Shown: positions 29,478-49,707 of the stretch, piece after piece
How positions within the stretch are numbered: the stretch's first letter is position 1
Layout of the letters: every line of letters begins with the position of its first letter
NCBI GenBank assembly: GCA_033854515.1
Contig: JAWOJY010000003.1
Span: forward strand, 2,254 to 66,253
Reading direction: 5' to 3'
Length of the DNA: 64,000 nt
Origin: Nitrospirota bacterium
GTDB lineage: Bacteria > Nitrospirota > UBA9217
Made by a program: the position numbers and the translations under genes
Notes under the pieces: generated by a model
Told to the model about the DNA's origin: nothing
What the model saw: the letters and a program-made list of their open reading frames with translations, nothing else
Database searches by the model: none

Positions 29478-31146
29478 GGTGGTTAAAAGATACCGTCCCC
29501 CATTCAGAGTTTGGTCTTCCGTAATCGGGAATCGTTATCTCCATATCCCCGTAACAGTACGGGTACTCCTTTCTCATGCGTTCGGTGGGAAGCATCCAGC
29601 GGTATCCGTCGACGATCAGTGCAAGCCCGCCGACGATCAGCAAGGCATTGAAGATCGTCCAGCCGGGTGAGGCAACGCCGAAATAGGCCATCAGTCCCGC
29701 CCCGACGGACGTAATGTTCATGCCCGTCCTGACGTACGCCATGCCCGTCCGCGACACTGCCATAACCGTCCGGAGCCTCGCCATGACGCCGCGACGGTCG
29801 GCAAGTACTGTCCGTTCCAAAGCGTGGCCTGTCGTGGCCCAGATGCCGGGCTTCTGGTTCACTGTAACCGGCGGACCGTCCTTGCCCGGTCCCGATCGTT
29901 TGTGTCCGAGCGGAAATACCAGGTCCCAGATCGTTTCCTTGTTCAGTGCCGCGAACACGGACCGTAACCCTTCGATTCCGGACTTGCGACCGCCGAAATA
30001 CCAGTAAAAGCCCTCGGCGGACATGAGAATGCCTGCAGCAATAAGCGCGACGTCGAAGACCGACCACGCTGACCACCTGCTCGTCTCAAACTGCCGCATC
30101 AACCCTATCCCGAGTCCGGTAAAGGTAATGCCGGTGCGCGTAAAGGCGAGTCCCGTCCGCGCTCGGGCGAGCTTCGTCCGGTGGCCGGCAAGCGAGGTCC
30201 GCTCCTCAGCCATGTCGGTCCGGTCGCTCGCGAGGTACCTTCGCCGCATTACCGGCGAGAGATTCTCCCAGTCGGCCCTGAGTTCGGCGGCGCCGTCCGT
30301 GACGGATCCCCGGCTGATAACAGGAGGGCGACCGTCGGATATCGCTGCTTCCAGCACGCAGGTGCCCCACGTCGGCTCCGTGCAGGTGGCATCAATTGGC
30401 TTCGCAGCGATCTTTCGTGAGGGCAGATACCATTTGATCCCGTCATAGACCATAATGATGCCGGCGACGAGGAGCGGCGCTTCGAGGACGAGATAAAAGC
30501 CGGAGCCCAGGACGCGCAGGAACAGGAGAGCGATGACGATGAAGGAGACGCCCGTCCGGACGAAAGCGAGGCCCGTTCTCCCCTTCGCGAAGAGCGTCCG
30601 GTAATGCGCAAAGGTCGATCGCCGGTACGCGAAGAAGGTCCTCACGCGCGCAAGGGGCGTCCGGCCGCCGAAGATGCGGAAATTGCAGTTCACGTCGAAA
30701 TTGTGTTCAATGATGCGGATGAGGTCCGCGGGAAAGGCGATTCGGAAATCGATCTGCTCCACTCCCAGAATTCTCTTAACGTCTTCGATCACGCGCTCAT
30801 CATCGGGACGGAAGGCGATGACCTCGGCCCTCTGCTCGCGCACGGAGAGCGGAAACCACAAAGCCTTCTTCTGGTGCTCGAGGTCGAGCCGCAGGACCAG
30901 AAAGTAGGACGCGGCCACGTTCTCATCGAATTCAACAAAAGGGCGGCCGTAATGTTCTGAAAGGCTGAACAAAATTTCGTGCTTCGGAACGCCTTTTTCA
31001 AGTAACCATTCCTCGGGATATTTACCCACGGTCGCTGACTTTTTTACAGCATCCTCTAATTCCACGTCGGTAAGAATCCCTCTTCTCACCAGCCGTTCAA
31101 ACTTTTTTTTGAACATGACATCAGACATTTTTTCAAAAACCTGCAC
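29467..31146 (-). CDS. Membrane protein: N-terminal GspE/MshE-N-like (T2SSE_N) domain fused to three DUF202-like heptad-repeat/TM modules (paralog of 28236..29477)
   Basis: FERLVRRGILTDVELEDAVKK...EHYGRPFVEF is the T2SSE_N-like part. Three RTxxAxx heptad blocks (RTPLARVRTFFAYRRSTFAHYRTLFAKGRTGLAFVRTG, RTDMAEERTSLAGHRTKLARARTGLAFTRTG and RRGVMARLRTVMAVSRTGMAYVRTG) are each followed by a TM helix. The gene overlaps its downstream paralog by 11 nt. The start is uncertain: GTG at 31146, or ATG at 31128 or 31116. Confidence 0.6.
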   Translation of the reverse strand: MQVFEKMSDVMFKKKFERLVRRGILTDVELEDAVKKSATVGKYPEEWLLEKGVPKHEILFSLSEHYGRPFVEFDENVAASYFLVLRLDLEHQKKALWFPLSVREQRAEVIAFRPDDERVIEDVKRILGVEQIDFRIAFPADLIRIIEHNFDVNCNFRIFGGRTPLARVRTFFAYRRSTFAHYRTLFAKGRTGLAFVRTGVSFIVIALLFLRVLGSGFYLVLEAPLLVAGIIMVYDGIKWYLPSRKIAAKPIDATCTEPTWGTCVLEAAISDGRPPVISRGSVTDGAAELRADWENLSPVMRRRYLASDRTDMAEERTSLAGHRTKLARARTGLAFTRTGITFTGLGIGLMRQFETSRWSAWSVFDVALIAAGILMSAEGFYWYFGGRKSGIEGLRSVFAALNKETIWDLVFPLGHKRSGPGKDGPPVTVNQKPGIWATTGHALERTVLADRRGVMARLRTVMAVSRTGMAYVRTGMNITSVGAGLMAYFGVASPGWTIFNALLIVGGLALIVDGYRWMLPTERMRKEYPYCYGDMEITIPDYGRPNSEWGTVSFNHHEK

Positions 31147-34668: not shown

Positions 34669-35166
34669 TCAGGCCACGCAGCAGGCCTGTTTTGTCATGG
34701 TAACGATAGGCCGCGACGACGTCCTGACCAAGCGGTTGAGATCCTTGGACGATATATTGCCCTTCTCGGTCACAGCGGGGCTCAACAGAACCTTGTCGAT
34801 TCCCGAATTCTGCTTGAGAAAGGTCCTGATGCCCGAGACCGCGTCAAGTCCCGTGTTATGGACATGAACGTGAATGCCTTCCTTATGACACTTTTCTACC
34901 AGCTCGGCGAGTTTCTGATCGAGGCGCTTGCGTGCGTCGGGAGAATCCCCGGCCGCAACCTGTCGAGCCGTATCATGGTCATCTTCCTCTGCGAAACTCA
35001 CGGCGGTCATCAGATTTTCGATCTTGTCCATCAGGGTGTTTTTCTTGTGAACGAGCAGAAGCGCGATATCTTCATACATCGCCTTTGCAAGTTCAATGGC
35101 ATATGAAAGCCCATCTTCGAGATTCTCATCGCGGTATGTGACAAATAAAAGCTGTCTCTTTCCCAT
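34669..35166 (-). CDS. Divergent Usp-like protein carrying an inserted SFAEE-motif segment
   Basis: Strong RBS AAGGAGG. Usp-like beta-alpha pattern (LLFVTYRDENLEDGLSYAIELAKAMYEDIALLLV ... KVLLSPA). The insertion LMDKIENLMTAVSFAEEDDHDTARQ matches a motif in two genes of the second Usp operon. It is the first gene after the sigma-54 promoter. Confidence 0.5.
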   Translation of the reverse strand: MGKRQLLFVTYRDENLEDGLSYAIELAKAMYEDIALLLVHKKNTLMDKIENLMTAVSFAEEDDHDTARQVAAGDSPDARKRLDQKLAELVEKCHKEGIHVHVHNTGLDAVSGIRTFLKQNSGIDKVLLSPAVTEKGNISSKDLNRLVRTSSRPIVTMTKQACCVA

Positions 35167-35224: not shown

Positions 35225-35241
35225 TTGCAATGAGAATGCCA
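35225..35241 (-). promoter_or_regulatory. Sigma-54 (RpoN) -24/-12 promoter: TGGCAT-TCTCA-TTGCAA
   Basis: On the minus strand the sequence reads TGGCATTCTCATTGCAA, with the conserved GG and GC spaced exactly as in the TGGCAC-N5-TTGCW consensus. It lies about 50 nt upstream of the 35166 start, in an AT-rich intergenic region next to a sigma-54 activator gene. Confidence 0.55.
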
Positions 35242-35638
35242 TTTTTTAAGTTATTGTTTTTAAAACATTTGATAACTTAATGCCAAATTATATTGTTTCA
35301 AATTTTAACTATTATGAACATCAGACAAATAATTTAGTATCAATTTCGAATTTCACGCGAAGCAGAAAGTCAGTTTCTACCCTTTATTTAGAGGGCAAAA
35401 CATCATTTTTTAGAGACAGCTAAGTAATAGCGAAATATACTATTTGGCATTTTCTTTCATGTTTCAAAACTGGACATGATTTGTATTTTTGAAATTTATT
35501 GAATAATCTGTTACTATAAGGTGCAATATACATAAAAAATATCTGTTTTTTGAAAAATTTTGCACCTCTTTACAGCAAAAAGTTAAGCGTGCATTCGCGT
35601 CTTTCGCGATTAAAATTGGTTTTAGACAAGGGGAAAAT

Positions 35639-36250
35639 ATGACTGAACCGAATAATCCCGGTGAAGAAAAAGCCTGGGAGATTCTGTCGACGCTGGATCC
35701 GGACAAGCTGTGCAAGGCCGCGTCCGCCTTCTATGACCGAGCGACGGAAAAATACGCTGTGACGTCGCTCGGAATGAGATTCGACGTTTCACCCAAGGAA
35801 AGGACGATTTCGAGCGCCTCACCCGGAAGCGAGGTGATCCTTCATAAACTCGGTTATTTCTTCAAGCTCTCAATCCTGTGGTATCTGGTAAGCGCAAAAG
35901 ACATTCGTTGCACGGAACGTCTCGTGAAGCTTCAGAACATCAAAGGCGGGGATATATTTACTAGGGGGTCGCACCTCCTGCCCCTTGACAGGCTGGAGCT
36001 GAAATACGGGACGAACAAGAGCGGGTTTATCGAGAAGGGGAAAACGCTTGCCGGAGAAATCATGAATTACGGCGACGCTTCGCTGAAGCTCTTCCCTTTT
36101 CCAAGGGTCCCGGTCGTTCTCACGCTCTGGATCGAGGATGAGGAGTTCCCGGCCCGCGTTGATCTGCTGTTCGATTCAACCTGCGATCTGCTGTTGCCGG
36201 TCGATATAATCTGGTCCACAGCCATGCTGACCGTGCTCGCCATGCTGTGA
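35639..36250 (+). CDS. DUF3786-like hypothetical protein
   Basis: 203 aa; RBS AAGGGGAAAA upstream; preceded by a 470-bp AT-rich region; the family assignment is from memory only. Confidence 0.45.
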   Translation: MTEPNNPGEEKAWEILSTLDPDKLCKAASAFYDRATEKYAVTSLGMRFDVSPKERTISSASPGSEVILHKLGYFFKLSILWYLVSAKDIRCTERLVKLQNIKGGDIFTRGSHLLPLDRLELKYGTNKSGFIEKGKTLAGEIMNYGDASLKLFPFPRVPVVLTLWIEDEEFPARVDLLFDSTCDLLLPVDIIWSTAMLTVLAML

Positions 36251-36268: not shown

Positions 36269-37609
36269 CTAACTTTCTTCAGCCTCTTTCAGTATGCGCC
36301 ACAGGCTGGTTCTCGAAATGCCGAGCACTTCGGCCGTCTTGGATCTGTTGCCGCCGTACATATCGAGCACTTTTTCCGCGTATTCCTTGTTCAATTCATC
36401 GATGGTCTTGATCCTGTCCGGCTCGAGCGTATCGATCTGGAACATCTTGATGCTCTGGGGCAGGCTCGCGGGGGTAATGAGAGAATCCCGTTCGAGGATG
36501 ATCGCCCGCTCGATGATGTTCTCAAGCTCCCGCACGTTTCCCGGGAAGCTGTACGTCATGAAGATGTCCATTGCGTCTTTGGAGAACCCGCTTATCTTTT
36601 TGCGGGACTTTGGGAGGTGTTTTTCAAGGAAAAACCTGCACAGCGGAGAAATGTCCTCCCTGCGCTCCCGGAGCGGCGGGGTGAATATCTCCATGATGTT
36701 GAGCCGGTAGTAGAGGTCCTCCCTGAACCTCCCTTCCGAGATGAGCGCCCGCACGTTCTGGTTCGTCGCCGCAATAAACCGTACATCAACTTTGATGGGC
36801 CGTGTGCCGCCGACTCTGTAGAATTCGCCTTCCTCGATCACCTTGAGGAGCTTCGCCTGGAGGTTCGGAGACATCTCGGCGATCTCATCAAGGAACAGAG
36901 TGCCCGTGTCGGCGATCTCTACGAGACCCTGTTTGGTCCTGTGAGCTCCGGTGAACGCCCCTTTCTCGTGGCCGAACAGCTCGCTGGCGAGAAGTTCCTC
37001 GGTCAGCGTCGCGCAGTTTATGGAGAGGAATGGCATGTCTTGGCGCCTGCTCGTGAAATGAATGATCTTGGCCAGGAGACTCTTTCCCACGCCGGTCTCA
37101 CCCGTGAGAAGAACGTTGCAATCGGAGTCCTTGATCCCCTCGATGATGCTGAGGATGTTCTTCATGCTCTCGCTTTTCGCGATGATCGATGCCTTCTTAT
37201 CCATTCCGAGGTATGTTTTAAGGGCGATGTTCTCCTTTCTCAGGGTCTTCTGTTCCCGGATCTTGTTCACCTTCAGGATGAGTTCGTCCAGATCGTAGGG
37301 CTTCGTAATGTATTCGTATGCCCCTTTTTTCATTGCATCCACCGCCGACCCGATGCTCCCGAATCCGGTCACGATGATGACCTCCGTATCGAGCTGTTTT
37401 TCCTTGATTGTGTCGAGGAGTTCGATGCCGGTTAGACCCGGCATTTTTATATCGGCGATGAGCACGTCATAGGCGCGGGTTTCCATGTTCTCGAGCGCTT
37501 CCGTTCCGTTCGTTACGCCGGTCACGTCATACCCTTCCTTGGCAAGAGTATTCATGAGGTGCTTCAGGGTTATTTCTTCATCTTCAGCTACAAGTATCTT
37601 AAAAGCCAT
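36269..37609 (-). CDS. Sigma-54-dependent transcriptional activator, NtrC family (REC, AAA+ sigma-54 interaction domain, Fis-type HTH)
   Basis: REC domain (ILVAEDEE, DVLIADIKMPG); Walker A GETGVGKSLLA; GAFTGA motif (EKGAFTGA); the ESELFGHEKGAF region; C-terminal HTH (RSKTAEVLGISRTSLWRILK). Confidence 0.9.
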   Translation of the reverse strand: MAFKILVAEDEEITLKHLMNTLAKEGYDVTGVTNGTEALENMETRAYDVLIADIKMPGLTGIELLDTIKEKQLDTEVIIVTGFGSIGSAVDAMKKGAYEYITKPYDLDELILKVNKIREQKTLRKENIALKTYLGMDKKASIIAKSESMKNILSIIEGIKDSDCNVLLTGETGVGKSLLAKIIHFTSRRQDMPFLSINCATLTEELLASELFGHEKGAFTGAHRTKQGLVEIADTGTLFLDEIAEMSPNLQAKLLKVIEEGEFYRVGGTRPIKVDVRFIAATNQNVRALISEGRFREDLYYRLNIMEIFTPPLRERREDISPLCRFFLEKHLPKSRKKISGFSKDAMDIFMTYSFPGNVRELENIIERAIILERDSLITPASLPQSIKMFQIDTLEPDRIKTIDELNKEYAEKVLDMYGGNRSKTAEVLGISRTSLWRILKEAEES

Positions 37610-37710: not shown

Positions 37711-39300
37711 TCAATCGGAAAAAACAATAATAAACGTCGTTCCCCTGCCTTCTTCGCTTTCAACCAGTATTCCCGCATTGTGTTTTTGTATGATATTAAA
37801 CACGACGGCCAGTCCCAGACCGTTGCCTTTGTCCTTTGTGGTGAAAAAGGGCTCGAAAATCTTATCGAGAGAGTCTTTCGGGATTCCGCTGCCCGAATCG
37901 GACACCTTCACGGTCACTGATCCGTTCGACTTTCTGACGGATGTCCGGATGTCCCCTTCACCATGCATGGCTTCGACCGCGTTCGTAAACAGGTTGATGA
38001 AAACCTGCTCCAACTGCGCGGGATCGGCCTGTACGTAAACACGATGCGGATCGGCGTCGATAGAGAAACGGATGCCGTTCAGGACTTGAGGAGACACGGA
38101 GAGGCGTTTATAAGAGCTGCCGATCAACCCGATCAGTTCCACGTCCCGGAGCTGCGGCTTCTTGCCCCGCGCGAACTCAAGGAGATCTCCCACAATCTTT
38201 TTCACTCTGAGCGTTTCTCCTTCGATATCGTCCACGGCTTCTCTCGCTGCGGGCGGAAGGGCACCGCCGGCCTCTTTTGAAAGCACCTGAGCCGACAGAT
38301 AAATGTTATTGAGGGGGTTATTGAGTTCATGTGCCACCCCCGACGCAAGAGTGCCGATGGCGGCAAGCTTCTTACTCCGCATCAGCTCTTTGTTTTTCCG
38401 GTCGAGTTCTTCGTCTCTTCGTGCGAGTTGTCCCTGCAGGGTATTGAACTCGTCTATAAGCACCCCCACTTCATCGCGGACGTTGTCTTTTGACGGCGGA
38501 TCGTACAGATGCATGTACCATCCCGTGCCGGCCTTTTCCACTATCTTTATCAGGAGCATCAATCGTCGCACGACGTTGCCGCTGATAAAGAACAGCGTCC
38601 CTATGCCGACGATAAAGAACAGCGGGAAAAATATGATAATCGCCGTCTGCGAGACGCGGGTCACGGTCTTCGCATGTTCACGCGCTTCGATATCGAGGTC
38701 ATTGGCTATAACGACGATGTCCTCGCCGTTTTTTCTCAACGTGCCGACTTCCGCATCGAGTTTTCTGAGCCCCGTGACCAGATTGTGGTCCGGCGGCAGC
38801 ATGAACACCGTTTCGAGAATATCCGCCGCGTCCGACGGGCGATGCAAAAAATCCGATTCCATGAACAGGGAAAATTCGGCAGAGTTACGATATGAGGGTT
38901 TTATACGATCAAATGCAGTTGTCAGGCTCTCTCCAGACGCTTCTACTTCATCAAACCTCTGCTCGTACTTCTTCAACCGGTCCCGCAGGGCCAGTTCATC
39001 CTTCCAGTCGATGTGGGGGTTCGCTGCCAGGATATCCTGCATTTCCTTGGTACAGAGATGTACGGCCTTCGATTCTTCCGCGACCTGCTGGGGACTTTTG
39101 GCAAAGAAATAGTTGGTTTCATGCCGTCTCAGATCGAGGGCCTTCCTCATCACAAGGTCCGTTGTCTCCAGGTATCGTATCTCCCTCTTGATCTCCACAA
39201 AATTTATGTATTCGAATACCGTGAGGATGGCGATGATGGCGGCGCTGATGAGAAAACCGATGGTTATTTTCTTCTTAAGTGACACGGCTTTGGCAACCAC
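37711..39300 (-). CDS. Sensor histidine kinase (paralog 1 of a tandem pair)
   Basis: TM, sensor with RRHETNYFFA, TM, HAMP, H-box GVAHELNNPLNNI, HATPase boxes (NLFTNAVEA, DSGSGI, GNGLGLA); begins with GTG. Confidence 0.85.
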   Translation of the reverse strand: MVAKAVSLKKKITIGFLISAAIIAILTVFEYINFVEIKREIRYLETTDLVMRKALDLRRHETNYFFAKSPQQVAEESKAVHLCTKEMQDILAANPHIDWKDELALRDRLKKYEQRFDEVEASGESLTTAFDRIKPSYRNSAEFSLFMESDFLHRPSDAADILETVFMLPPDHNLVTGLRKLDAEVGTLRKNGEDIVVIANDLDIEAREHAKTVTRVSQTAIIIFFPLFFIVGIGTLFFISGNVVRRLMLLIKIVEKAGTGWYMHLYDPPSKDNVRDEVGVLIDEFNTLQGQLARRDEELDRKNKELMRSKKLAAIGTLASGVAHELNNPLNNIYLSAQVLSKEAGGALPPAAREAVDDIEGETLRVKKIVGDLLEFARGKKPQLRDVELIGLIGSSYKRLSVSPQVLNGIRFSIDADPHRVYVQADPAQLEQVFINLFTNAVEAMHGEGDIRTSVRKSNGSVTVKVSDSGSGIPKDSLDKIFEPFFTTKDKGNGLGLAVVFNIIQKHNAGILVESEEGRGTTFIIVFSD

Positions 39301-39448: not shown

Positions 39449-41086
39449 TCAGTTCTCCCCGGCGTCGTTAACGGACGTTCCGACGGCGCCGGAAACAACC
39501 CCTCCCGCCCCCGTCTGTTTCACCGGGAATATGATAATAAACGTTGTTCCCTTTTCCGGTTCGCTTTCAACCAGTATTTCAGCGTTATGCTTTTGCAGGA
39601 TATTGAACACGATTGCCAGCCCCAGCCCCGTGCCCCTGTCCTTCGTTGTAAAAAAAGGCTCGAAAATCTTGTCAAGGGAGTCCTTCGGGATGCCGCATCC
39701 TGAATCGGTTATTTTCATCGTTACTGATTCATCCGACTTTTTGATGGAGACCCGGAGACTGCCTTCATAGCGCATCGCTTCGACGGCATTCATAAAGAGA
39801 TTGATGAAAACCTGCTCCAACTGCGCGGGATCGGCCTGTACACACACGCGTTCGGGATAGGAGTCGACGGAAAAGCGTACCTTGTCCAGGGAGTGAGACA
39901 TTTTGAGATGCTTGAAGGAATGGTCGATCAGGCCTTGTAATTCCACGTCCTCCACCTGCGGTTTTCTGCCGCGCGCGAACTCGAGGAGGTCACCGACGAT
40001 CCTCTTCACCCGAAGCGTTTGGCCGACGATGTCGCCGAGGGCGTTTTTCACCGCAGGCTGAATATGTTCGTTCGCCTCTTTCAAAAGCACCTGGGCCGAC
40101 AGATAGATATTGTTGAGGGGGTTATTGAGTTCGTGCGCCACGCCCGACGCCAGCGTGCCGATTGCGGCCAGCTTCTTCGCTTGCATGAGTTCTCTGTTTT
40201 TCCGGTCGAGTTCTTCTTCTCTCCGGGCAAGCTGGTCCTCCATATCGTTAAATTTGTCGATCAGCAGTCCCACCTCGTCATGAGCGTTGCCTTCGGAAGA
40301 AGAAACGGAAATGTGCGGATAGTTTCCTTTGCCGGTCTTTTCGATTACCTTGATCAGGAGCATCAGTCTCTTGACGGCGCTGCCGCTGATGAAAAAAAGG
40401 GTCCCGATGCCGACGATGAAAAAAATGGGGAAGATCACAAGGATGGCCAGTTGGGAAATGCGGATAACCGTCTCCGTGTTTTCCCTTGCAACTTTGTCGA
40501 GTTCTTTGGAAATAATGAGGATATCTTCACCGTTTTTTCTGAGTGCGGCAATGTCGCCGTCGAGCCTCCTGAGCCCGAAGATTAGTGCGTGATTTGAGGG
40601 AAGCAGGAACCCCTTTTCGAGGACATCAGCCGCCTGAGACGGACGTTCGAGAAACGTCGACTCTATCATCGGGAAGAACTCGGCATGGCTCCGGTGCGCG
40701 GGTTTTATCCCTTCAAACGCCTTCGTCAGGCCGCGAACCGCGACTTCGATGGTGCTGAATCGTTGTTCATATTCGTTGATCCGGTCCCGCAAGGCGAGTT
40801 CATTCTTCCGGTCGATGTGCGGGTTTTTTGTCAGTATGTCCCTGAGCTGCCCCACGTAGTCATGTACCGCCTCTGATTCTTCCTTTGCCATCTGAGTACT
40901 GTAGAGGAAGTAATTCTTTTCGTGCCGCCGGAGTTGGAGGGACTTCCTCATAATCGTATCGGTCGTCTCAAGATACCGGGTTTCCTTTTTGATTTCTATG
41001 AAATTGACATATTCAAACGCCGTAAGCACGGCGATGATTGCGGCGCTTATCAAAAAACTGATTGCTATTTTTTTCTTGAGTGACAT
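39449..41086 (-). CDS. Sensor histidine kinase (paralog 2 of a tandem pair)
   Basis: Near-identical layout and many identical blocks relative to 37711..39300 (MSLKKKIAISFLISAAIIAVLTAFEYVNFIEIK..., GVAHELNNPLNNI, DSGCGI, GTGLGLA); start set at the ATG of MSLKKK. Confidence 0.85.
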   Translation of the reverse strand: MSLKKKIAISFLISAAIIAVLTAFEYVNFIEIKKETRYLETTDTIMRKSLQLRRHEKNYFLYSTQMAKEESEAVHDYVGQLRDILTKNPHIDRKNELALRDRINEYEQRFSTIEVAVRGLTKAFEGIKPAHRSHAEFFPMIESTFLERPSQAADVLEKGFLLPSNHALIFGLRRLDGDIAALRKNGEDILIISKELDKVARENTETVIRISQLAILVIFPIFFIVGIGTLFFISGSAVKRLMLLIKVIEKTGKGNYPHISVSSSEGNAHDEVGLLIDKFNDMEDQLARREEELDRKNRELMQAKKLAAIGTLASGVAHELNNPLNNIYLSAQVLLKEANEHIQPAVKNALGDIVGQTLRVKRIVGDLLEFARGRKPQVEDVELQGLIDHSFKHLKMSHSLDKVRFSVDSYPERVCVQADPAQLEQVFINLFMNAVEAMRYEGSLRVSIKKSDESVTMKITDSGCGIPKDSLDKIFEPFFTTKDRGTGLGLAIVFNILQKHNAEILVESEPEKGTTFIIIFPVKQTGAGGVVSGAVGTSVNDAGEN

Positions 41087-41213
41087 GGTTTTTTTGTTAC
41101 CGGTATGGTACTTTAACACAGAGACTTTCCCCGTGCAACACAAAAGAAAAAGGCCGAAGCAACGCATCGTCGGCGTCCCTGCTTCAGCCTGGCAAAATTC
41201 ACTGCGGCTGTTA

Positions 41214-42068
41214 TTACGACCTGACAATGAGCACGGGGCACCCGGCGTGTCCGATGACCTTTTCGGCCACGCTTCCCATGAGGAGCCTTCTCAAGCCGGT
41301 CCTTCCGTGGGACCCCATGACGATGATGTCCGCTTTTTTCCGCTGTGCGAGGTCGATGATCGCCTGGTACGCTTCTGCCTCGGCTATGAACGTCTCCGCC
41401 TTGATTCCTGCTTCTTCCGCCTGCTTCCGGATCCCCTCGACAAAGCTTTTCGCCTTTTTGACAAGGTCCTCCATGGCCTGCGGGGCCTCGGCGTAAAATT
41501 CTGACGGGACATCTACCACGCAGATGATAATGAGCCCGCCGTTGTATGATTCGGCGAGACTTATAGCCTTCGCGGCTGCAGTCATGCTGAATCGGGACCC
41601 ATCGGTCGCGATCAGGATTTTGTTCCATCCCACCGCTGTCCGAAGCGGCATGACGAGCACATCACGCTCGCTGTGGCCGATGACCCGCGCCGTGACGCTG
41701 CCGACCAGCGCCCGCTCGAAACCGGTCCGGCCTTTTCTGCCCATGATGATAAGATCGGCGTTTTCCGCAACGGCAAGGTCGACGATCCGCTCATGGGGAG
41801 GGCCTTCCTCACAGACGGTCTTGATAAGCGCGCCGTCCGCCTGGGCCATCTTCTGTGCTTCGGCAAGCGCGGCCTCGCAGGGCCTTCTCAGGGACTCCAG
41901 GATGTTTTTCGTGCCCACGAATTCCAGGTCACCCTCGAAGGGAGGAGCAACTGAAGTGACCGTTATCCAGCTCTTTTCATTGAGCGCGAGCTTGAAGGAT
42001 TCCCTCAATGCGTTCATGCTTGACTCCGAGCCGTCAACGGCCACCAGCAGTTTCCTATATCTTCCCAT
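41214..42068 (-). CDS. Universal stress protein with tandem Usp domains
   Basis: Two Usp repeats (KLLVAVDGSESS...LIIMGRKGRTGFERALVGSVTARVI and ILIATDGSRFS...IIVMGSHGRTGLRRLLMGSVAEKVI). Confidence 0.85.
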   Translation of the reverse strand: MGRYRKLLVAVDGSESSMNALRESFKLALNEKSWITVTSVAPPFEGDLEFVGTKNILESLRRPCEAALAEAQKMAQADGALIKTVCEEGPPHERIVDLAVAENADLIIMGRKGRTGFERALVGSVTARVIGHSERDVLVMPLRTAVGWNKILIATDGSRFSMTAAAKAISLAESYNGGLIIICVVDVPSEFYAEAPQAMEDLVKKAKSFVEGIRKQAEEAGIKAETFIAEAEAYQAIIDLAQRKKADIIVMGSHGRTGLRRLLMGSVAEKVIGHAGCPVLIVRS

Positions 42069-43146
42069 GCTCCAGCGCTCCCTCGGAGAGCCTGAGTTTT
42101 TCTTCCCTGCGCCCTTGCATCATGGCACGCAGCACGATGATGGCACCCAGCAGTAATGCGGCGATCATTATACCAAAGCTCGTGGTCTTGAGCAACCCGG
42201 CCGTGCCGTCGCCGAGCTTCTGGATGAGGCCGAGCTGGGACAGGTACACCGGGATCATGAGCCCGCGGCTGAAGAGCACGATGACCATGATCAGGCCCAT
42301 GACGACCTTGATCATGTACGGCTTGACGTAGGTGGTGCCGATGGCGCCGAGCTGAATGCCGAAGAGCGAGCCCGCGAGAATGATCAGGGCGAGCCGGATA
42401 TCGACGAGCCCGCTCATGGCGTACTTGAACGAGCCGCCGAGACCCATGACGAATGCGATCACAAGCTCAGTGGCCGAGGCCATGAGGCTGGGCGCGCCCA
42501 TGACGTAGATCATCGAAGGGACGCCGATGAAGCCGCCGACGGCGATCGTAGCCGCCAGCATGCCCGTCGCAAAACCGAGAGGAACGGTAAAGAGCACCGA
42601 AATGCGGGCGTTCAGGCTCTTGAAGTAGACCATCGTGCCCGGAATGTTGATTGACTGGACCCAGCGCGCCAGCTTGCCGGCCTTCTCTTCTTCGAGCACG
42701 TTGCCCGACTTGTAAGTCTTATAGGCGTCACGCAGCACAAAGCCGCCCACCAGCGCGAGGATCACGACAAAGGCCACGCTCACGTACAGGTTCGAACCTG
42801 CATCGCCGAAGGCTTTCTTGATGTTTTCCTGGATGTGGGCGCCGTAGAGCACCCCTGCTTCCGCCGAGATGCCGAGCACGATACCGAGTTTCACGTCGAC
42901 CTGGCCGTACTTGGCCCGTTTGATCGCCCCGACGAGCGCCTTGGGAAACTTGTGGCACATGTTGCTCGCGACCGCCACGAGCCCGGGGACCCCCAGGCTC
43001 ATCATGCCCGGCGTAAGCACGAAAGCCCCGCCCGATCCGATAAATCCGCTTACGAGACCCCCGACAAAGCCCACACCGAAAAGGTAGAGGACAGTGATGG
43101 TGTCGAGGTTGATGAAATTAGCCGCTGTTCCGATGACGTCGTGCAT
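42055..43146 (-). CDS. TauE/SafE (TSUP) family permease
   Basis: GxGGG-type signatures (GFIGSGGAFVLTPGMM and IAVGGFIGVPSMIYVMG); 8-10 TM helices. Confidence 0.8.
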   Translation of the reverse strand: MHDVIGTAANFINLDTITVLYLFGVGFVGGLVSGFIGSGGAFVLTPGMMSLGVPGLVAVASNMCHKFPKALVGAIKRAKYGQVDVKLGIVLGISAEAGVLYGAHIQENIKKAFGDAGSNLYVSVAFVVILALVGGFVLRDAYKTYKSGNVLEEEKAGKLARWVQSINIPGTMVYFKSLNARISVLFTVPLGFATGMLAATIAVGGFIGVPSMIYVMGAPSLMASATELVIAFVMGLGGSFKYAMSGLVDIRLALIILAGSLFGIQLGAIGTTYVKPYMIKVVMGLIMVIVLFSRGLMIPVYLSQLGLIQKLGDGTAGLLKTTSFGIMIAALLLGAIIVLRAMMQGRREEKLRLSEGALEHGKI

Positions 43147-43147
43147 G

Positions 43148-43402
43148 TTATTTTACCTCCTTCTTTTTTTTGGCCGCCTCGATACCCATGACCGTCCAGA
43201 AATGACCGGTGAATTGGCCATGTACAAACGAAAATACGAACGCCAGTGTTATGGGCAAAAAAGCATAGAGCCCGCCCCTGCCGAACGTGCCGTTCACCAT
43301 GTCCTGGTTGGACAGGAGCGCGGCGTACAGCGCCATGGAGACGACTCCCATGAACAGCATCTTGCCGACCGGTTTCTTTTTCGTGCTGCTGTGTGCCATC
43401 AC
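43148..43402 (-). CDS. Small 2-TM membrane protein encoded immediately upstream of the TSUP permease
   Basis: 84 aa; two hydrophobic helices; 1-nt gap to the permease gene. Confidence 0.5.
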   Translation of the reverse strand: MMAHSSTKKKPVGKMLFMGVVSMALYAALLSNQDMVNGTFGRGGLYAFLPITLAFVFSFVHGQFTGHFWTVMGIEAAKKKKEVK

Positions 43403-43456
43403 TGTGTTCCTCCTTGAATTATAGGGTTATGCTCCGAGATAAAGCCGTTTGCTCTC

Positions 43457-43948
43457 TCACGCGCGCATGCTGTCCGCAACCACCACGAGCGGGCACCTGA
43501 GGTCCTGCCACAGGTCGGAAAGCCTCCTGTCCCCGCTGTTGCAATCAACGTCGAGCCCTTCCGACGACTCGATGACGACGAAGAGTACGGAGCTCTTGGC
43601 ATTCGTGTAATCGATGATTTCCTGTTTCATGCAGCCGGTCCTGTGCGTCACCGCATACTCAATCCCCGCGGTCCTGAGTTCTGACAGGAAATCGCGGAGC
43701 AGCGGGTCCGAATCAGCGCCGGACGCGAGCTCCCGCGAAAGATACAGGATGTCAAGCCCCGCCCTGACCCGCATGCAGGTGTTCACGGCGTACTTCAACG
43801 TCCCGGCGTCCACCTGCCCGCGCCTCACGGCGAGCAGTACCCTTCGTTCCTGTTTCAGCAACTCTTCGGCCTGGCCGAACGCTCCTTCCTCGGCGAAGGA
43901 ACCCGCAGTCAGCGCCTTTTCAATTTTGTCGATCATTTTGTTGATCTT
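43457..43948 (-). CDS. Divergent Usp-like protein with an N-terminal SFAEEG motif
   Basis: Start at the ATG with GAGGT upstream. The N-terminus MVHKINKMIDKIEKALTAGSFAEEGAFGQAEELL carries the motif; a Usp-like C-terminal part follows (VLFVVIESSEGLD...LVVVAD). Confidence 0.5.
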   Translation of the reverse strand, partial: KINKMIDKIEKALTAGSFAEEGAFGQAEELLKQERRVLLAVRRGQVDAGTLKYAVNTCMRVRAGLDILYLSRELASGADSDPLLRDFLSELRTAGIEYAVTHRTGCMKQEIIDYTNAKSSVLFVVIESSEGLDVDCNSGDRRLSDLWQDLRCPLVVVADSMRA

Positions 43949-43998
43949 ATGTACCATTTTCCCTGCTACCTCGGGAGCGGCACAGGAAGCCTCCGCTC

Positions 43999-44175
43999 TT
44001 AGTCGGCCCTCAACACTTTCCTTTCCGACGGCCGCGTACGCTTGTGAGCGGACGGACGATCGGTCTTTCTCGACTGTATTTCTCTTATCAGCTGCCGCGC
44101 CGTCTCGAACTCGCCTTCTTCGGCGAATGCAACAGCAGCCATTTCCGTTTCGCGCCTTTTGATAAATTCTTTCAT
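43999..44175 (-). CDS. Small protein (58 aa) carrying the same AFAEEGEF motif
   Basis: Strong RBS AAGGGAAAGGAGGT 7 nt before the ATG; sequence MKEFIKRRETEMAAVAFAEEGEFETARQLIREIQ...; it is the first gene after the sigma-54-like promoter. Confidence 0.4.
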   Translation of the reverse strand: MKEFIKRRETEMAAVAFAEEGEFETARQLIREIQSRKTDRPSAHKRTRPSERKVLRAD

Positions 44176-44211
44176 GTTCGTGTACCTCCTTTCCCTTTTT
44201 ACTATTTCTGT

Positions 44212-44228
44212 TATCAAGTACCGTGCCA
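44212..44228 (-). promoter_or_regulatory. Sigma-54-like promoter candidate: TGGCAC-GGTAC-TTGATAA
   Basis: Perfect -24 element and correct spacing, but the -12 element reads TTGA rather than TTGC; about 25 nt upstream of the RBS of the small gene. Confidence 0.35.
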
Positions 44229-44568
44229 CAATGAAACAAACATATAAGTCATTGTATTCGCAGAATTAAAATTTTAAAATGAAGACCAACCTCAAGAAAA
44301 TATTGTTTCAAAAAGCAATAGTTCAATTTTAAATGCAACCATATTATTGAAAAAAAGAATAATTCTAATCGATACAAAAACGAACCTATATTGCAAAATG
44401 CAACAATTTTGTTTTTCTGCTCTTAAAACTAGACGCTTGCCGGAAAAAAGCGGCCCTGTTGTGGACGGCATTTTTTTGTGGTATAGTGAATTTTGTTGGA
44501 GAAAAAAGCTTTCTCTCGTCGAGTGCACATCACGGCTTCAATCGGGAAACTGCGAGGATGGGCGGACC

Positions 44569-46593
44569 GTGAAATTTTTCAAAAAATCGGACGACAGCCA
44601 GCAGGAAACAATCATCGAAGAGCTGCGCCAGAAGATCGCCGCGGCCGCTATGCCGCCGTCCGTCGAGAAGATTGCGGAGCAGGAACTTGAAATTCTGACA
44701 AAGATAAACTCTTCGTCTGCCGAATACACGATCGGGCTCACCTATATCGACTATCTCGTCTGCCTTCCGTGGAACAGAAAGACCGAGGACAATCTCGACA
44801 TCGCCCGCGCTGAAAGAATACTGAACGAGGACCATTACGGTCTGAGGAGGACCAAGGAGCGCGTTCTGGAGCACCTTGCGGTCAAAGTGCTGAATAGGGA
44901 CAGGAAGCCGCAGATTCTGGTCGTCGACGACGAAGAGATCGCGAGGAAAAACCTGGCCCATATCCTGACAAAGGAAACCTATGCCGTAACGACCGCTTCG
45001 AACGGCAAAGAAGCGCTCAGGGCGCTCGATGCCTTCGAGTTCGACGTCGTGGTCACCGATCTCAGAATGGGCTCCATCGACGGGATGGAACTTCTCGAAA
45101 AGATCACCGTGAAATATCCGGCCGCGAAAGTGATCATCGTAACCGGGTATGCCACGATCCCGTCGGCTATAGAGGCCACGAAAAAAGGGGCCTTCTCGTA
45201 TATCGCAAAACCGTTCCAGCTCGAAGAGGTCCGCGCAGCGGTCAAACAGGCGCTGGAAAAGAAAGCTCGCGTAAAGAGCACCAAGGGTTCCGTCCTCTGC
45301 TTTGTGGGCCCTCCGGGCACGGGGAAGACGTCGCTCGGCAGGTCTATTGCCGGAGCCCTGGGACGAAAATTCACAAGGATATCGCTGGGCGGTATGAAAG
45401 ACGAGGCCGAGATACGCGGCCACCGGCGGACTTACGTCGGCGCGAAACCCGGCAGGATCATCGAGGAAATCCGCAGAGTGGAATCCGCCAACCCGGTCAT
45501 CATGCTCGACGAGCTGGATAAGATCGGGCACGACTTCAAGGGAGACCCCGCCTCGGCGCTCCTCGAAGTGCTGGATCCGGAACAGAACCACAGTTTTGTC
45601 GACCACTATCTCGACGTGCCCTTCGACCTGTCGAGCGTCATGTTCATCCTCACGGCGAACATTATGGAACACATCCCCTCCCCGCTCAGGGACCGCATGG
45701 AACTCATCGAATTTTCCGGATATACCCATGAAGAGAAGGCCCGCATCGCCGAACTGTTCGTCATCCCGCGCCAGATACGGGAAAAGGGGCTGACTGAGCG
45801 CCCGCCCGTCTTCACGCGCGAGGCAGTGGACAGGATCATTCGCGAGTACACCCGCGAGGCTGGCATCCGGAACCTCGAAAGAAAGATTGCGTCGGTCTGC
45901 AGAAAAGTAGCCAAAGAACTGGTCGACACAAAAGGAAATCTAGGCGCCGTGACCATAACGCCGGATGCCGTAGAGCGCTACCTCGGCCGGAGAAAGTATT
46001 ACTTCGAAGTGGTCGAAGAAAAGGACCGAATCGGCGTCACGACCGGCCTGGTCTGGACCGAGGCGGGCGGGGACATCATTTTCGTCGAAGCAGCCATGAT
46101 GAGGGGAAAAAAAGAGCTCCTGTTGACAGGTTCGCTCGGGGACGTCATGAAGGAATCGGCGCAGGCCGCCCTGAGCTACGTGAGGAGCAACGCGGCTTCG
46201 CTCGGCATTCCTGAGGATTTTTTCGAGCGCTACGACATCCACATCCACGTGCCGTCAGGAGCGATCCAGAAGGACGGGCCCTCGGCCGGGCTCGCCATGG
46301 TCATCGCCCTTATATCCCTCCTTACAAAACGTCCGGCGAAACGGGACGCGGCCATGAGCGGTGAAATAACCCTCACCGGCAGGGTCCTCCCCGTGGGCGG
46401 GGTCAAGGAGAAAATCCTGGCCGCCCGGCGCGCCAACGTCAAGACCGTCATTCTTCCCGCCAAGAACCGGGTGGACGTTGAAGATTTAACCGACGAGGCT
46501 TCGAACGGCATCACCATCCGTCTGGTCGATACTGTAAACGAAGTGGCCGACCTGGTTGTCACGAGGGAAAAGGAATTACCGGGACAATCATAA
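44569..46593 (+). CDS. Lon-family ATP-dependent protease with a response-regulator receiver domain inserted before the AAA+ module and no canonical N-terminal LON substrate-binding domain
   Basis: A Lon pre-AAA helical segment ([21 protein letters not shown], which aligns with E. coli Lon DTDHYGLERVKDRILEYLAV) leads into a complete REC domain (ILVVDDEE...[15 protein letters not shown]...VIIVTGY...YIAKPF). Walker A (GPPGTGKTS), the Lon sensor region and the catalytic protease Ser (DGPSAG) and Lys (KEKILAA) follow. The low-GC 5' part of the long ORF looks non-coding, so the start was set at the in-frame GTG 44569 behind GAGGA; the ORF could start as early as 44347. Confidence 0.85.
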
Positions 46594-46751
46594 GTCAAAA
46601 GGCATGACGACTTACATTCCGTCATTCCGTCTGCATCCGCATATTGCAGGAGAGCAAGATGGGCTGACCCGCCTGCCCTGAACCATCCCTTCCTGATTTT
46701 TCCTTCCTGTTACGTTACGCAGATCGCGTCCTCTGTTGCTTTTTGCAATAG

Positions 46752-48344
46752 ATGATGGTAAAATCCACCATGTTTTCTTTCCCCCAGAGTATCCGCCAGA
46801 AGATCACGCTCGGCTACTACGCCATCATCGTCCTTATCGTCGGGCTGTCGCTGTTCATGTTCATCGAACTGAGGCTTGTTGAAAAGCGGATCATGTTCGG
46901 CGAGACCATATCGGATTTTTTTGATACCACCCTGGAGATCAGAAGGTTCGAGAAGAACTATTTCCTCTACGCCAAGGGACCCGATTACGAGGAGAACATA
47001 ACCTATGTAACCAGGGCGCAGGAAATCCTCGAGGAGAGCATTCCCGGTTTCAGCACCATCGCCAGCGCGGAGCAGATACAGACGCTGAGGGACAACCTCG
47101 GGTCGTACAAGGCCCTCATGGAACAGTATTCGGGAGCGAAGTCGAAGGGGCTTCACCTCGTTGTTCTGGAAGAGAGCATCAGGAAAAAGGGAAAAGACAT
47201 CATTACCGCTGCCGAGGCGATTTCAAAAAGCGAGCGGAAAAATCTCCAGGCCCTCCTCGCGCGGCACCAGGGCATCCTCGTCCTTTCGATCGCCGCTCTC
47301 TCCGTTCTGGCGATCATCATCGGCCAGGTGCTCTCGCGGATAGTGGTGCGGCCCCTGAAATCCCTGGAAGAGAGCATGGGCGTGATCGCCGAGGGAAAAT
47401 TCGAACGGGTATCGATCAACTCAAAAGATCGGGAGATCGTCTCGCTTACGAAGGCCTTCAATAAAATGCTGCGGGAACTCGAGCTCCACGAGCGGCACCT
47501 GATCCAGTCGGAGAAGCTCGCATCCCTCGGCACGCTCCTGTCTGGCGTAGCCCACGAGCTCAACAATCCCCTTTCCAACATTTCGTCGTCCAACCAGATC
47601 CTCACGGAAGAATTAAAAGAGTGCCTGGGATCGTGGGTCGCGGGCCCGGGAACAGGGAAAAGAGAACAGGAAAGCAAGGACAAACGTCCCTCCGCATCCC
47701 CGCCCGTGAACCCGCATTTCGTCATGGAACTCGTCGCGCAGATAAACGACCAGACCGACCGCGCCCGGAACATCGTCCGCTCCCTCCTCGATTTTTCGCG
47801 GGACAGGGAGTTCAAGAAGGAGACACTGTCGCTGAGAAAGCTTTTCGACGAAACCATCCAGTTCATCAGGGGCGACATTCCGACGAACATCACCGTTACC
47901 CTCGACGTGCCCGACGATATCTCCGTGTTCGTCGACAAGCAGCGGATCCAGCAGGCTTTCCTGAATCTGATAAAGAACGCCGTAGACGCTACGGCCCCGA
48001 AGGAAGGTAGGATATCGATCATCGCGCACCGGCAGCTTGCCATTGAAGACACCGAAGACGACAGGATCGGGATCTACAATTACCTGAAGTACCGCGGCGA
48101 ATGCCCTTTTGAGGAGGACACCGTAGACATCGAAATCCAGGACACCGGTTCGGGCATACCGATCGAGATAATCCCGAAGATCTTCGATCCCTTCTTCACC
48201 ACAAAGGAGGTGGGCAAGGGATCGGGGCTCGGTCTCTTTATCGTCCATGAGATTGTAAAGGAGCACGACGGCTGCATCGCGGTGGACAGCGAACCGGGCA
48301 AAGGAACATCATTTCTCATACGATTGCCGATGAAGGAGTCATAA
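46752..48344 (+). CDS. Sensor histidine kinase (TM, EKNYFLY-type sensor, TM, HAMP, HisKA, HATPase_c)
   Basis: RRFEKNYFLY sensor motif; H-box GVAHELNNPLSNI; N-box NLIKNAVDA; G-boxes DTGSGI and GSGLGLF. Its stop abuts the downstream sigma-54 activator (1-nt gap). Confidence 0.85.
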   Translation: MMVKSTMFSFPQSIRQKITLGYYAIIVLIVGLSLFMFIELRLVEKRIMFGETISDFFDTTLEIRRFEKNYFLYAKGPDYEENITYVTRAQEILEESIPGFSTIASAEQIQTLRDNLGSYKALMEQYSGAKSKGLHLVVLEESIRKKGKDIITAAEAISKSERKNLQALLARHQGILVLSIAALSVLAIIIGQVLSRIVVRPLKSLEESMGVIAEGKFERVSINSKDREIVSLTKAFNKMLRELELHERHLIQSEKLASLGTLLSGVAHELNNPLSNISSSNQILTEELKECLGSWVAGPGTGKREQESKDKRPSASPPVNPHFVMELVAQINDQTDRARNIVRSLLDFSRDREFKKETLSLRKLFDETIQFIRGDIPTNITVTLDVPDDISVFVDKQRIQQAFLNLIKNAVDATAPKEGRISIIAHRQLAIEDTEDDRIGIYNYLKYRGECPFEEDTVDIEIQDTGSGIPIEIIPKIFDPFFTTKEVGKGSGLGLFIVHEIVKEHDGCIAVDSEPGKGTSFLIRLPMKES

Positions 48345-48345
48345 C

Positions 48346-49707
48346 GTGGAAAACCAGGCAAAGATACTGATCGTCGACGATGAGAGGGTCGCCCTCAAGA
48401 ACCTCGAGCACGTCATGAAAAAAGAGGGCTATGACGTGACCGCGACACAGAGCGGGGCGAACGCCGTCAAGCTCCTCGAAGAGCAGCAGTTCGACATTGT
48501 GCTTACCGACCTGCGCATGGAAAAGGTCGACGGCATGCAGATTCTGAAGCGGTGCCATGAGCTGTATCCCGACACGGAGGTGATCATGATAACCGGCTAC
48601 GCCACTCTCGAATCCGCGGTCAACACCATGAAGCACGGCGCGTTCCATTACATCGCGAAACCCTTCAAGCTCGACGAGGTGAGAAAGATAGTCAAGGACG
48701 CCGCGGAAAAGATCAGGCTGAAGAAGGAGAACCGGCAACTCAGGGAGCAGCTCGAAACCTACCAGGGAAAGGTCAAGATCATCACCCAGGATCCCACGAT
48801 GCAGCGACTGCTCGACACCGCGCGCCAGATCGCGCCGACCGACTGCAACGTCATCATCACCGGCGAGAGCGGCACGGGCAAGGAGCTCTTCGCCCGCTAC
48901 ATCCATTTCAACAGCAAGCGCTCGGGGGGCCCTTTCTTCGCCGTGAACTGCGGCGCCTTTACCGAGGAACTGCTGTCGAACGAACTCTTCGGACACGAGA
49001 AGGGCGCGTTCACCGGCGCGAACGCCATGAAGAAAGGCCTCATCGAGATGGCGTCCGGCGGGACCCTGTTCCTCGACGAGGTGACCGAGATGCCCGCGTC
49101 GGCGCAGGTAAAGCTCCTTCGGGTCATTCAGGAGAAGGAAGTCATGCGCGTCGGCGGGACCGAGGCCCTGAAAGTGGACGTCCGCTTCATTGCAGCGACG
49201 AACCGCGACATCCACGACACGATGAAGAGCGGCAAGTTCCGGCAGGACCTGTACTTCAGGCTGAACGTCGTCTCCCTGAACATCCCTCCCCTGTCCGAGC
49301 GCAAGGACGATATCCCGCTTCTCACGTACTACTTCCTGAAGAAGTACTCCGTGCTCATGAAAAAAGAGATCACGGAGGTATCGCACGAAGTGCTCAACCT
49401 TCTGATGAACTATGATTTCCCCGGCAACGTCCGGGAACTCGAGAACATTATCGAACGGGGAGTGGCCCTCGCGAGCGGCGCGAGGATCGAGATCGCCCAC
49501 CTGCCGGAAGACCTGCGGGAGCTGAGCATCCGCACGTTCAGGAAGAAGGACGGAAAGATCCCGTCGCTCGAAGACCAGGAAATGGCCTATATCCAGTGGG
49601 TCCTGCAGGAGGTCGCCGGGAACAAGACCGTTGCGGCCCAGTTTCTCGGGATCGACCGCGTATCGCTGTGGAGGAAGCTCAAGAAGTACGGATTGGAGGA
49701 GGAGTAG
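48346..49707 (+). CDS. Sigma-54-dependent transcriptional activator, NtrC family
   Basis: GTG start; REC domain (ILIVDDE, DIVLTDLRMEKVDG); Walker A GESGTGKELFA; GAFTGA motif (EKGAFTGA); C-terminal HTH (KTVAAQFLGIDRVSLWRKLKK). Confidence 0.9.
   Translation: MENQAKILIVDDERVALKNLEHVMKKEGYDVTATQSGANAVKLLEEQQFDIVLTDLRMEKVDGMQILKRCHELYPDTEVIMITGYATLESAVNTMKHGAFHYIAKPFKLDEVRKIVKDAAEKIRLKKENRQLREQLETYQGKVKIITQDPTMQRLLDTARQIAPTDCNVIITGESGTGKELFARYIHFNSKRSGGPFFAVNCGAFTEELLSNELFGHEKGAFTGANAMKKGLIEMASGGTLFLDEVTEMPASAQVKLLRVIQEKEVMRVGGTEALKVDVRFIAATNRDIHDTMKSGKFRQDLYFRLNVVSLNIPPLSERKDDIPLLTYYFLKKYSVLMKKEITEVSHEVLNLLMNYDFPGNVRELENIIERGVALASGARIEIAHLPEDLRELSIRTFRKKDGKIPSLEDQEMAYIQWVLQEVAGNKTVAAQFLGIDRVSLWRKLKKYGLEEE

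Follow-up and report, generated by a model that had tools for sequence, protein, structure and literature searches.

Which activator controls a Usp/TSUP operon that is followed, on its own strand, by genes for two histidine kinases and a sigma-54 activator, and does its transcript extend into those genes? We addressed this question for a Nitrospirota bacterium in a window of 64,000 nucleotides, the whole stretch of contig JAWOJY010000003.1 (assembly GCA_033854515.1, positions 2,254 to 66,253) that was analyzed, which contains two look-alike operons for universal stress proteins (Usp) and TSUP permeases. Operon 2, our main subject, runs on the minus strand from 44175 down to 41214 and is followed by the kinase genes HK1 and HK2, the gene for the enhancer-binding protein EBP1 and, from 35166 downwards, operon 1, which has a TSUP and Alph_Pro_TM pair. 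From the upstream intergenic region of operon 2, a cluster unmentioned in the first-pass annotation of this DNA diverges on the plus strand (44569-49707), encoding a protease with a receiver domain (REC-Lon), a third kinase (HK3) and a second activator (EBP2). The first-pass annotation considered that operon 2 might read through into HK1-HK2-EBP1, with EBP1 activating the operon 2 promoter; the last gene of the target operon would then encode its activator, closing a positive-feedback loop. We favor another arrangement, to which we assign a probability of roughly 65%: EBP2 would drive operon 2, a terminator would end it, HK1-HK2-EBP1 would form a separate unit, and EBP1 would drive operon 1. 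The two look-alike operons appear to fall under two distinct two-component/sigma-54 regulons that differ in operator and DNA-binding helix, and not to form one self-amplifying unit.

Two operator classes and two activators

For comparison, 581 relatives were confirmed in Nitrospirota/Thermodesulfovibrionia by their permease, and 80 loci were retained. Promoters were anchored on the first T of TGGCA, and upstream sites were sought with mismatch-tolerant, position-anchored scans; a count of perfect-palindrome dyads was too strict to detect enhancer sites. Two operator classes emerged. Class A (GTTGCA-N3-TGCAAC) lies mostly within a few nucleotides of -178 and -91, and is present in all 19 loci with a divergent Lon/HK3/EBP2 cluster as well as in all six that have Lon on the same strand upstream; those 25 loci had no class B site at one mismatch or fewer. 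Class B (GTTCAN-N3-NGAAAC) stands exactly at -69 where an HK1/EBP1-like pair is directly upstream (10 of 15 promoters match, all at that position), and at -64 to -69 in operon-1-type promoters, 14 of 16 of which have a match.

The activators divide along the same line. All 41 EBP1-type proteins carry LGISRT(S/T)LW(R/K)(I/V/L)LK in their DNA-binding helix, and approximately 35 EBP2-type proteins carry an almost invariant LGIDRVSLWRKLKK; this helix-turn-helix (HTH) type covaries with the site class, EBP2-type proteins occurring with class A and EBP1-type proteins with class B only. Gene neighborhoods point the same way: in many loci the Lon/HK3/EBP2 cluster remains beside operon 2 without a following HK1/EBP1, and HK1/EBP1 stays with operon 1.

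The first-pass annotation had proposed a search for activator-type inverted repeats upstream of both promoters in the window, and such sites were indeed found at -176 and -91 for operon 2 and at -68 for operon 1, with two EBP genes lying within 8 kb. The -176 site is the only match at one mismatch or fewer in the 64-kb window. The -91 site joins a class A left half to a different right half, and the -91/-92 sites of five other loci (L002, L012, L019, L021 and L023) have the same place and the same hybrid form. A further class A site stands just upstream of HK3 (Table 1); this position is occupied in 20 of 32 loci at 15-27 nt (mostly 18) before the HK3 gene, and 23 of 32 have a class A site within 150 nt upstream. 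Because a class A site recurs just before HK3, EBP2 probably autoregulates the HK3-EBP2 genes.

Under the arrangement we favor, the class A palindromes at -176 and -91 would be bound by EBP2, which, after its phosphorylation by HK3, would remodel sigma-54 polymerase at TGGCAC-N5-TTGAT. Transcription of operon 2 would mostly stop at the intrinsic terminator after the tandem Usp gene, HK1-HK2-EBP1 would be expressed from their own sigma-70-type extended -10 promoter, and EBP1 would act on the class B site (-68) of operon 1, with EBP2 probably acting also on its own operon through the site before HK3. The sequence elements, their conservation at fixed offsets and the covariation of helix with site class were established computationally; activator binding, termination efficiency and kinase-regulator pairing are here inferred from sequence.

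The gap between operon 2 and HK1

The 127-bp gap from the tandem Usp gene to the first kinase (ATG at 41086) had been given correctly in the first-pass annotation, which had also named a terminator between 41214 and 41086 as an observation that would speak against read-through. By folding the gap, we found such an element at 41142-41189, starting 25 nt past the tandem Usp stop codon and combining a G+C-rich hairpin with a U-tract, as is typical of Rho-independent terminators. Predicted folding energies are -24.4 kcal/mol (z -2.2) for the full 66 nt and -21.9 kcal/mol for the isolated hairpin. A generic terminator scan with a loop limit of 8 nt overlooked this element, which has a larger loop. 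Similar hairpins with a T-tract (-19 to -33 kcal/mol) are present in 10 of the 13 loci, the window included, that have an HK1-type kinase after the tandem Usp gene. No Rfam family reached its gathering threshold in the whole window, and the sole sub-threshold match within 40900-44700, a weak ctRNA-like one at 41140-41183, reflects the terminator hairpin.

The terminator-like element is followed by a sigma-70-like promoter with a TGn-extended -10 box, and in many loci, irrespective of the upstream context, HK1-type genes have such a box 7-25 nt ahead of their ATG. Because a terminator and then an extended -10 box precede HK1, the kinase-activator unit looks independently transcribed in the window, and the proposed read-through is disfavored on these in silico grounds.

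A conserved sigma-54 promoter class with a non-canonical -12 element

The sigma-54-like promoter that the first-pass annotation placed upstream of operon 2 (TGGCAC-N5-TTGATAA) is present, correctly positioned and conserved. Its -24 element has the expected GG (TGGCAC at 44223-44228); ten bases past the GG, where TTGCW is expected, it reads TTGAT, with A in place of the C. The -12 position is followed by GGAGG as the ribosome-binding site and, at a distance of 39 nt, by the sp58 ATG. The description of a perfect -24 and a weak -12 therefore holds as a statement about the sequence, and what changes is its meaning, since the weak -12 turns out to be a trait of a promoter class. Matches to TGGCAY-N5-TTGM number three in the 64-kb window compared with 0.39 expected, and two of them are upstream of the two Usp/TSUP operons.

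An equivalent promoter was found in approximately 75 related Thermodesulfovibrionia/Nitrospirota loci, 58 of them by a strict pattern. That pattern demanded [TC]TG at -14 to -12 and so missed about 16 loci with ATG or GTG; 14 further sites with ATG or GTG for TTG were listed (L013, L016, L018, L020, L025, L039, L041, L045, L049, L050, L055, L056, L075 and L079), and the other loci missed were L024 with a TGC site, L047 with an operon-1-like one, and L068 and L078 with weaker variants. Among the 58 strict sites, the TGG and the A of TGGCA are invariant and the C at its fourth position is kept in 56; a few of the later-found sites begin CGGCA or AGGCA. The -12 base is C in 6, A in 21, G in 21 and T in 10 of the strict sites, and it is also non-C in the 14 listed sites. 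Because the base is non-C in 52 of 58 while operon-1-type promoters keep TGC in 16 of 16, we regard the weak -12 as a conserved character of this promoter class and not as decay.

The third match in the window, at 1523, was dropped, as it is antisense within an open reading frame (ORF). It is a perfect sigma-54 consensus, TGGCACtcattTTGCT (1523-1538, plus strand), antisense in ORF 834-1991, and probably represents either chance or an antisense promoter.

Relation to known sigma-54 systems

The system belongs to the known sigma-54-dependent TSUP operons, the closest case being DVU2957. Desulfovibrio vulgaris has nine sigma-54 operons with genes for TSUP or PSE transporters whose substrates are unknown (PMC4641369). 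One of them, DVU2957-DVU2967 of strain Hildenborough, encodes a hypothetical protein, the TSUP protein DVU2958, a membrane protein, the EBP DVU2960, a kinase and others (Kazakov et al. 2015; PMC4641369). By electrophoretic mobility shift assay (EMSA), the divergently encoded EBP DVU2956 binds palindromic sites upstream of this operon and the in-operon DVU2960 does not; the predicted DVU2957 promoter, TGGCACGGAACTTGTT, is without the -12 C (PMC4641369). Compared at the level of published promoter and architecture, both systems have a sigma-54 promoter before a small hypothetical gene, a TSUP gene and a membrane protein gene, both have a -12 without C, and in both, two EBPs are candidates, of which one is encoded divergently and the other lies downstream, beside a histidine kinase gene and on the strand of the operon. 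By analogy, DVU2956/DVU2957 would closely parallel the wiring proposed here for EBP2 and operon 2. There are also clear differences: DVU2956 lacks the receiver domain that makes EBP2 a response regulator, and EBP2 also has a kinase of its own and a REC-Lon neighbor; the D. vulgaris operator is GCGGCAA-N4-TTGCCGC, in contrast to GTTGCA-N3-TGCAAC for class A in the window; and the downstream EBP of D. vulgaris is described as part of the operon, whereas a predicted terminator separates EBP1 from operon 2.

Both activators also resemble the NtrB/NtrC (glnAp2) paradigm, with REC-AAA+(GAFTGA)-HTH_8 proteins beside membrane kinases, a -24/-12 promoter preceded at 70-180 bp by palindromic enhancer sites in pairs, and an operator within the regulator's own operon that suggests autoregulation. 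They differ from it in their Usp/TSUP targets and in the systematic absence of the -12 C from one of two promoter classes. EBP1 and EBP2, 45% identical to each other, both carry PF00072, PF00158 and PF02954, with GAFTGA at residues 217 and 220, respectively. The best NCBIfam matches were to the AtoS/AtoC and ZraS/ZraR systems, all below equivalog cut-offs (AtoC, the best for the activators, scored 439 and 467 bits with a cut-off of 714), and neither protein qualified as an equivalog of AtoC, NtrC, ZraR or GlrR. Because of these sub-cut-off scores, we do not consider the EBPs to be orthologs of AtoC, NtrC or ZraR.

For the transported compound, the literature offers two leads. TSUP clade B of sulfate reducers, which is highly conserved and includes DVU2958, has been proposed as a possible sulfate transporter (PMC5840216). 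In the sulfur disproportionator Dissulfuribacter thermophilus, a TauE/SafE protein and a co-occurring transmembrane protein are a pair more abundant in thiosulfate disproportionation (PMC13490349); this TSUP and Alph_Pro_TM pair also occurs in operon 1 of the window, and that study concerns operon-1-like genes. Our literature search on REC-Lon fusions, and on TSUP with Usp and sigma-54, returned nothing useful. Within the known family, the locus is modestly unusual in its conserved non-C -12, its sp58/AFAEEGEF hairpin proteins and the REC-Lon protein in a regulatory operon. The present comparison ties it to the only experimentally probed analog, DVU2956/DVU2957, provides operator and promoter predictions for Thermodesulfovibrionia, an uncultured but widespread lineage, and draws attention to a small protein and a non-canonical -12 element, both of them conserved.

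Alternative explanations

The read-through model of the first-pass annotation has several observations in its favor. The eight genes share a strand, the gap being just 127 bp, EBP genes within sigma-54 operons are known (for example, DVU2960), and three relatives, L039, L041 and L055, have gaps of 6, 46 and 44 nt with no hairpin (L039 11963-11970; L041/L055 ~11949-11996), where one transcript probably covers both the TSUP2 operon and the kinase/activator pair. The right half of the -91 site, TGAAACAATAT, recurs exactly within the operon 1 site; the -91 site has three mismatches to the strict class A consensus and was assigned by position, its right half TGAAAC is a class B half-site, and the 12-mer TTGAAACAATAT is common to it and the operon 1 site. 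Cross-binding of EBP1 at operon 2 is thus conceivable, and the relatedness of classes A and B may allow cross-talk between the two systems. Intrinsic terminators leak, the HK1 sigma-70 promoter is a modest match that a generic consensus scan missed, and the link between site class and regulator comes from co-localization and covariation among related, non-independent genomes. All of these points count against the arrangement that we favor. The feedback model, however, has to contend with a strong terminator-like element in the gap that recurs in most comparable loci and is followed by an extended -10 promoter, with the absence of class B sites (one mismatch or fewer) upstream of any class A-type promoter, with an EBP1 HTH class that tracks class B sites only while operon 2 bears class A sites, and with the in-operon EBP of the closest studied analog, which did not bind. 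Of the two observations that the first-pass annotation said would refute its model, a terminator in the gap and missing activator binding, both are predicted in silico. Because a terminator appears to end operon 2 and a second activator, EBP2, matches the operon 2 sites, we consider a positive-feedback loop through EBP1 very improbable.

A milder form of coupling would supplement control by EBP2 rather than replace it: EBP2 would activate operon 2, partial read-through of the terminator would raise HK1, HK2 and EBP1 and so prime operon 1, and the two modules would fire sequentially, with full co-transcription in the relatives that have no terminator. The order operon 2 - HK1 - EBP1 - operon 1 on one strand in at least 11 loci is in keeping with this, as are the kinase gene of L039, which starts 6 nt past the Usp stop codon behind GGAGG, and the RRxEKNYFLY motif shared by the kinases of both systems. 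The terminator in most loci, the separate promoter of HK1, and the many genomes in which the two modules are non-adjacent or otherwise arranged make such a cascade unlikely. The remaining alternative concerns the promoter itself, which might not function without the -12 C, leaving operon 2 to be run from sigma-70-like promoters in the AT-rich intergenic region, where two such matches lie at 44353-44326 and 44278-44251. The GC at -12 is a major determinant of sigma-54 recognition, and its role in closed-complex stability is established (PMC5095919). Yet TGGCA and the TG of the -12 element are held at fixed spacing in approximately 75 loci and at a fixed offset to the upstream palindromes while the flanks have diverged, and a TTGT-type -12 likewise occurs in the D. 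vulgaris DVU2957 promoter, whose EBP site was verified by EMSA. The sigma-70-like matches score 9/12 in AT-rich DNA, in a region that has 16 such matches compared with 8.4 expected by chance. We therefore regard a non-functional -24/-12 match as extremely improbable, and retain EBP2 acting at this promoter as the preferred explanation.

Genes and sites of the locus

The gene order of the first-pass annotation for operon 2 (sp58, a Usp-like protein, a protein with two transmembrane spans (2-TM), a TSUP permease and a tandem Usp, all on the minus strand) and its tight packing are confirmed by the coordinates (Table 1). Intergenic gaps are 41 nt between sp58 and p166, 57 nt between p166 and the 2-TM gene (from ATG 43399) and 1 nt between the 2-TM and TSUP genes, and the permease and tandem Usp genes overlap by 14 nt. 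The same five genes are found in public gene calls on identical contigs, and a set of p166-or-p165-like, 2-TM, permease and tandem Usp genes is kept in nearly all of the 80 loci. Operon 2 is, to judge from these features, likely a self-contained sigma-54-dependent transcription unit.

Table 1. Positions of genes and regulatory elements in the window
Feature	Positions	Strand	Description
EBP2	48346..49707	+	REC-AAA+(GAFTGA)-HTH_8 activator; HTH ...AQFLGIDRVSLWRKLKKYGLE; predicted operon 2 regulator
HK3	46752..48344	+	HAMP histidine kinase; sensor motif RRxEKNYFLY common to HK1, HK2 and HK3
Class A site before HK3	46735..46749	+	GTTGCTTTTTGCAAT; 3 nt before HK3 start; candidate EBP2 autoregulation site
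REC-Lon protease	44569..46593	+	First gene of cluster; start probably GTG 44569 (MKFFKKSDD); publicly called 674 aa
Distal class A site, operon 2	44390..44404	-	GTTGCATTTTGCAAT; -176
Extra half-site-like element	44325..44339	-	GTTGCATTTAAAATT; -111; weak, position not kept in other loci
Proximal site, operon 2	44305..44319	-	ATTGCTTTTTGAAAC; -91; left half class A, right half TGAAAC
A/T-rich element	44245..44257	-	ATACAAtgacTTA; CAA-N4-TTA core, like the IHF consensus; between upstream sites and -24; putative function
Sigma-54 promoter, operon 2	44213..44228	-	-24/-12 type; TGGCACggtacTTGAT (also given as TGGCACGGTACTTGAT); -12 A, not C
sp58	43999..44175	-	Operon 2 gene 1; 58 aa; AVAFAEEGEFETAR alpha-hairpin motif, basic tail
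p166	43457..43957	-	Divergent Usp-fold protein (predicted); N-terminal SFAEEG hairpin; three invariant Cys; no ATP motif
2-TM protein	43148..43399	-	83 aa; two hydrophobic spans
TSUP2	42055..43146	-	TSUP/TauE permease; TauE PF01925, E 1.5e-35, residues 22-291
Tandem Usp	41214..42068	-	PF00582 twice, E 1.6e-65
Intrinsic-terminator-like element	41142..41189	-	Hairpin GGCUGAAGCAG...CGUUGCUUCGGCC (41152-41189), then UUUUUCUUUU (41142-41151)
Sigma-70-like promoter, kinase genes	41110..41138	-	TTGCAC-17 nt-(TGt)TAAAGT
HK1	39449..41086	-	Membrane histidine kinase; start MSLKKK as in orthologs
HK2	37711..39300	-	Tandem paralog of HK1, 66% identity
EBP1	36269..37609	-	REC-AAA+(GAFTGA)-HTH_8 activator; HTH ...AEVLGISRTSLWRILK
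Class B site, operon 1	35295..35320	-	tGTTCAtaataGTTAAAatttGAAAC; core GTTAAAATTTGAAAC at -68
Sigma-54 promoter, operon 1	35226..35241	-	TGGCATtctcaTTGCA; canonical -12

The TSUP2 permease is 76-88% identical in amino acid sequence across the 80 loci; it had no NCBIfam equivalog match, and from its family alone our guess for the cargo is a sulfur oxyanion or organosulfonate. The 2-TM protein, 48-76% identical and present in essentially all loci, is likely an accessory subunit of the permease. An ORF of the sp58 type, 53-65 aa long with the same motif, occurs in most loci and is annotated as a gene in public assemblies. Searches of Pfam and NCBIfam returned nothing significant for sp58, p166, p165 (34669-35166) or the 2-TM protein; likenesses to FimV-C-term, PPR and IraP (E 0.03-0.09) were too weak and were discarded as evidence. 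The CAA-N4-TTR form of the A/T-rich element is present at -25/-26 in 10 of 25 class A promoters, and at about -15 in 6 of 15 class B and 11 of 16 operon-1-type promoters.

The first-pass naming of p166 as Usp-like finds no support in Pfam, where p166 had no match at E<=0.01, and has some support at the profile and fold level. A profile of 28 homologs matches Usp chains of the Protein Data Bank (PDB) at E 0.005-0.05, and PF00582 or a universal-stress-protein name is attached to a few of 433 p166 homologs. The AF2 model (pLDDT 68, pTM 0.64) has a beta-alpha-beta pattern, and nearly all top Foldseek matches to this model of pLDDT 68 were Usp structures (best E 2e-5, TM 0.4-0.6), so that it is reasonable to describe p166 as a predicted Usp-like, divergent protein. 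The ATP-binding (UspFG) motif G-2x-G-9x-G(S/T) is found as G-2x-G-9x-GS in both halves of the tandem Usp and is absent from p166 and p165. Three cysteines are invariant in the p166 family: C109 in GC[LM]KQ, C139 in DxxC and C155 in CPLVVV. With these cysteines and no ATP motif, p166 may be a redox- or metal-sensing Usp variant.

Among the fold matches of p166 was TeaD of Halomonas elongata (PDB 3hgm), likewise a Usp encoded in a transporter operon, with the TRAP transporter TeaABC. TeaD modulates the activity of its transporter. The two differ in that the transporter is of the TRAP type there and TSUP here, and in that p166 has no ATP-binding motif and instead has three invariant cysteines and an N-terminal hairpin.

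That hairpin contains a motif, A-x-[AS]-F-A-E-E-[GD]-x-F/H-x-T/Q-A, found in three proteins of the two operons, at residues 14-26 of sp58, 18-30 of p166 and 55-67 of p165. It is present in all orthologs of the three proteins, either as a stand-alone protein of 53-65 aa or joined to Usp-like domains; the motif matched no family, and had only a faint likeness to TPR/FimV-C-term.

In the divergent cluster, the receiver domain of REC-Lon replaces the usual Lon N-terminal domain, and in most related loci its gene is a neighbor of the TSUP2 operon, in some cases downstream of it or sharing its strand. This domain make-up and proximity suggest phosphorylation-controlled proteolysis tied to operon 2. 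A search for a sigma-54 promoter of the Lon operon found none; a TGn-extended -10 box seems conserved instead. Taken together with the promoter class, these features permit a broader and quite improbable scenario in which the non-C -12 promoters, seen in approximately 75 Nitrospirota loci and at D. vulgaris DVU2957, would be a distinct sigma-54 class with a deliberately weak closed complex, making output dependent on two phased enhancer sites. In this scenario proteolysis would also gate the circuit: the same kinase would phosphorylate REC-Lon, whose targets would be the AFAEEGEF-hairpin proteins sp58 and p166, and these in turn would control a core TSUP transporter for sulfur anions in sulfate-reducing and disproportionating Nitrospirota.

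For the genes between the two operons, the first-pass description of two tandem kinases followed by a sigma-54 activator on the same strand was accurate, the activator being of the NtrC type. The kinase duplication is found only in the organism of the window among the surveyed loci, the others having a single kinase. Public gene calls give HK1 as 572 aa, with a start inside the terminator region, compared with orthologs that begin MSLKKK (545 aa). Between EBP1 and operon 1, a DUF3786 gene (35639-36250, plus strand) is inserted that is absent there in other surveyed loci; the gene and operon 1 have a control region in common, which contains a distal class B-like site (35461-35475). Downstream of operon 1, two adjacent genes (28236-31146, minus strand) encode an MshEN domain and DUF202 membrane segments.

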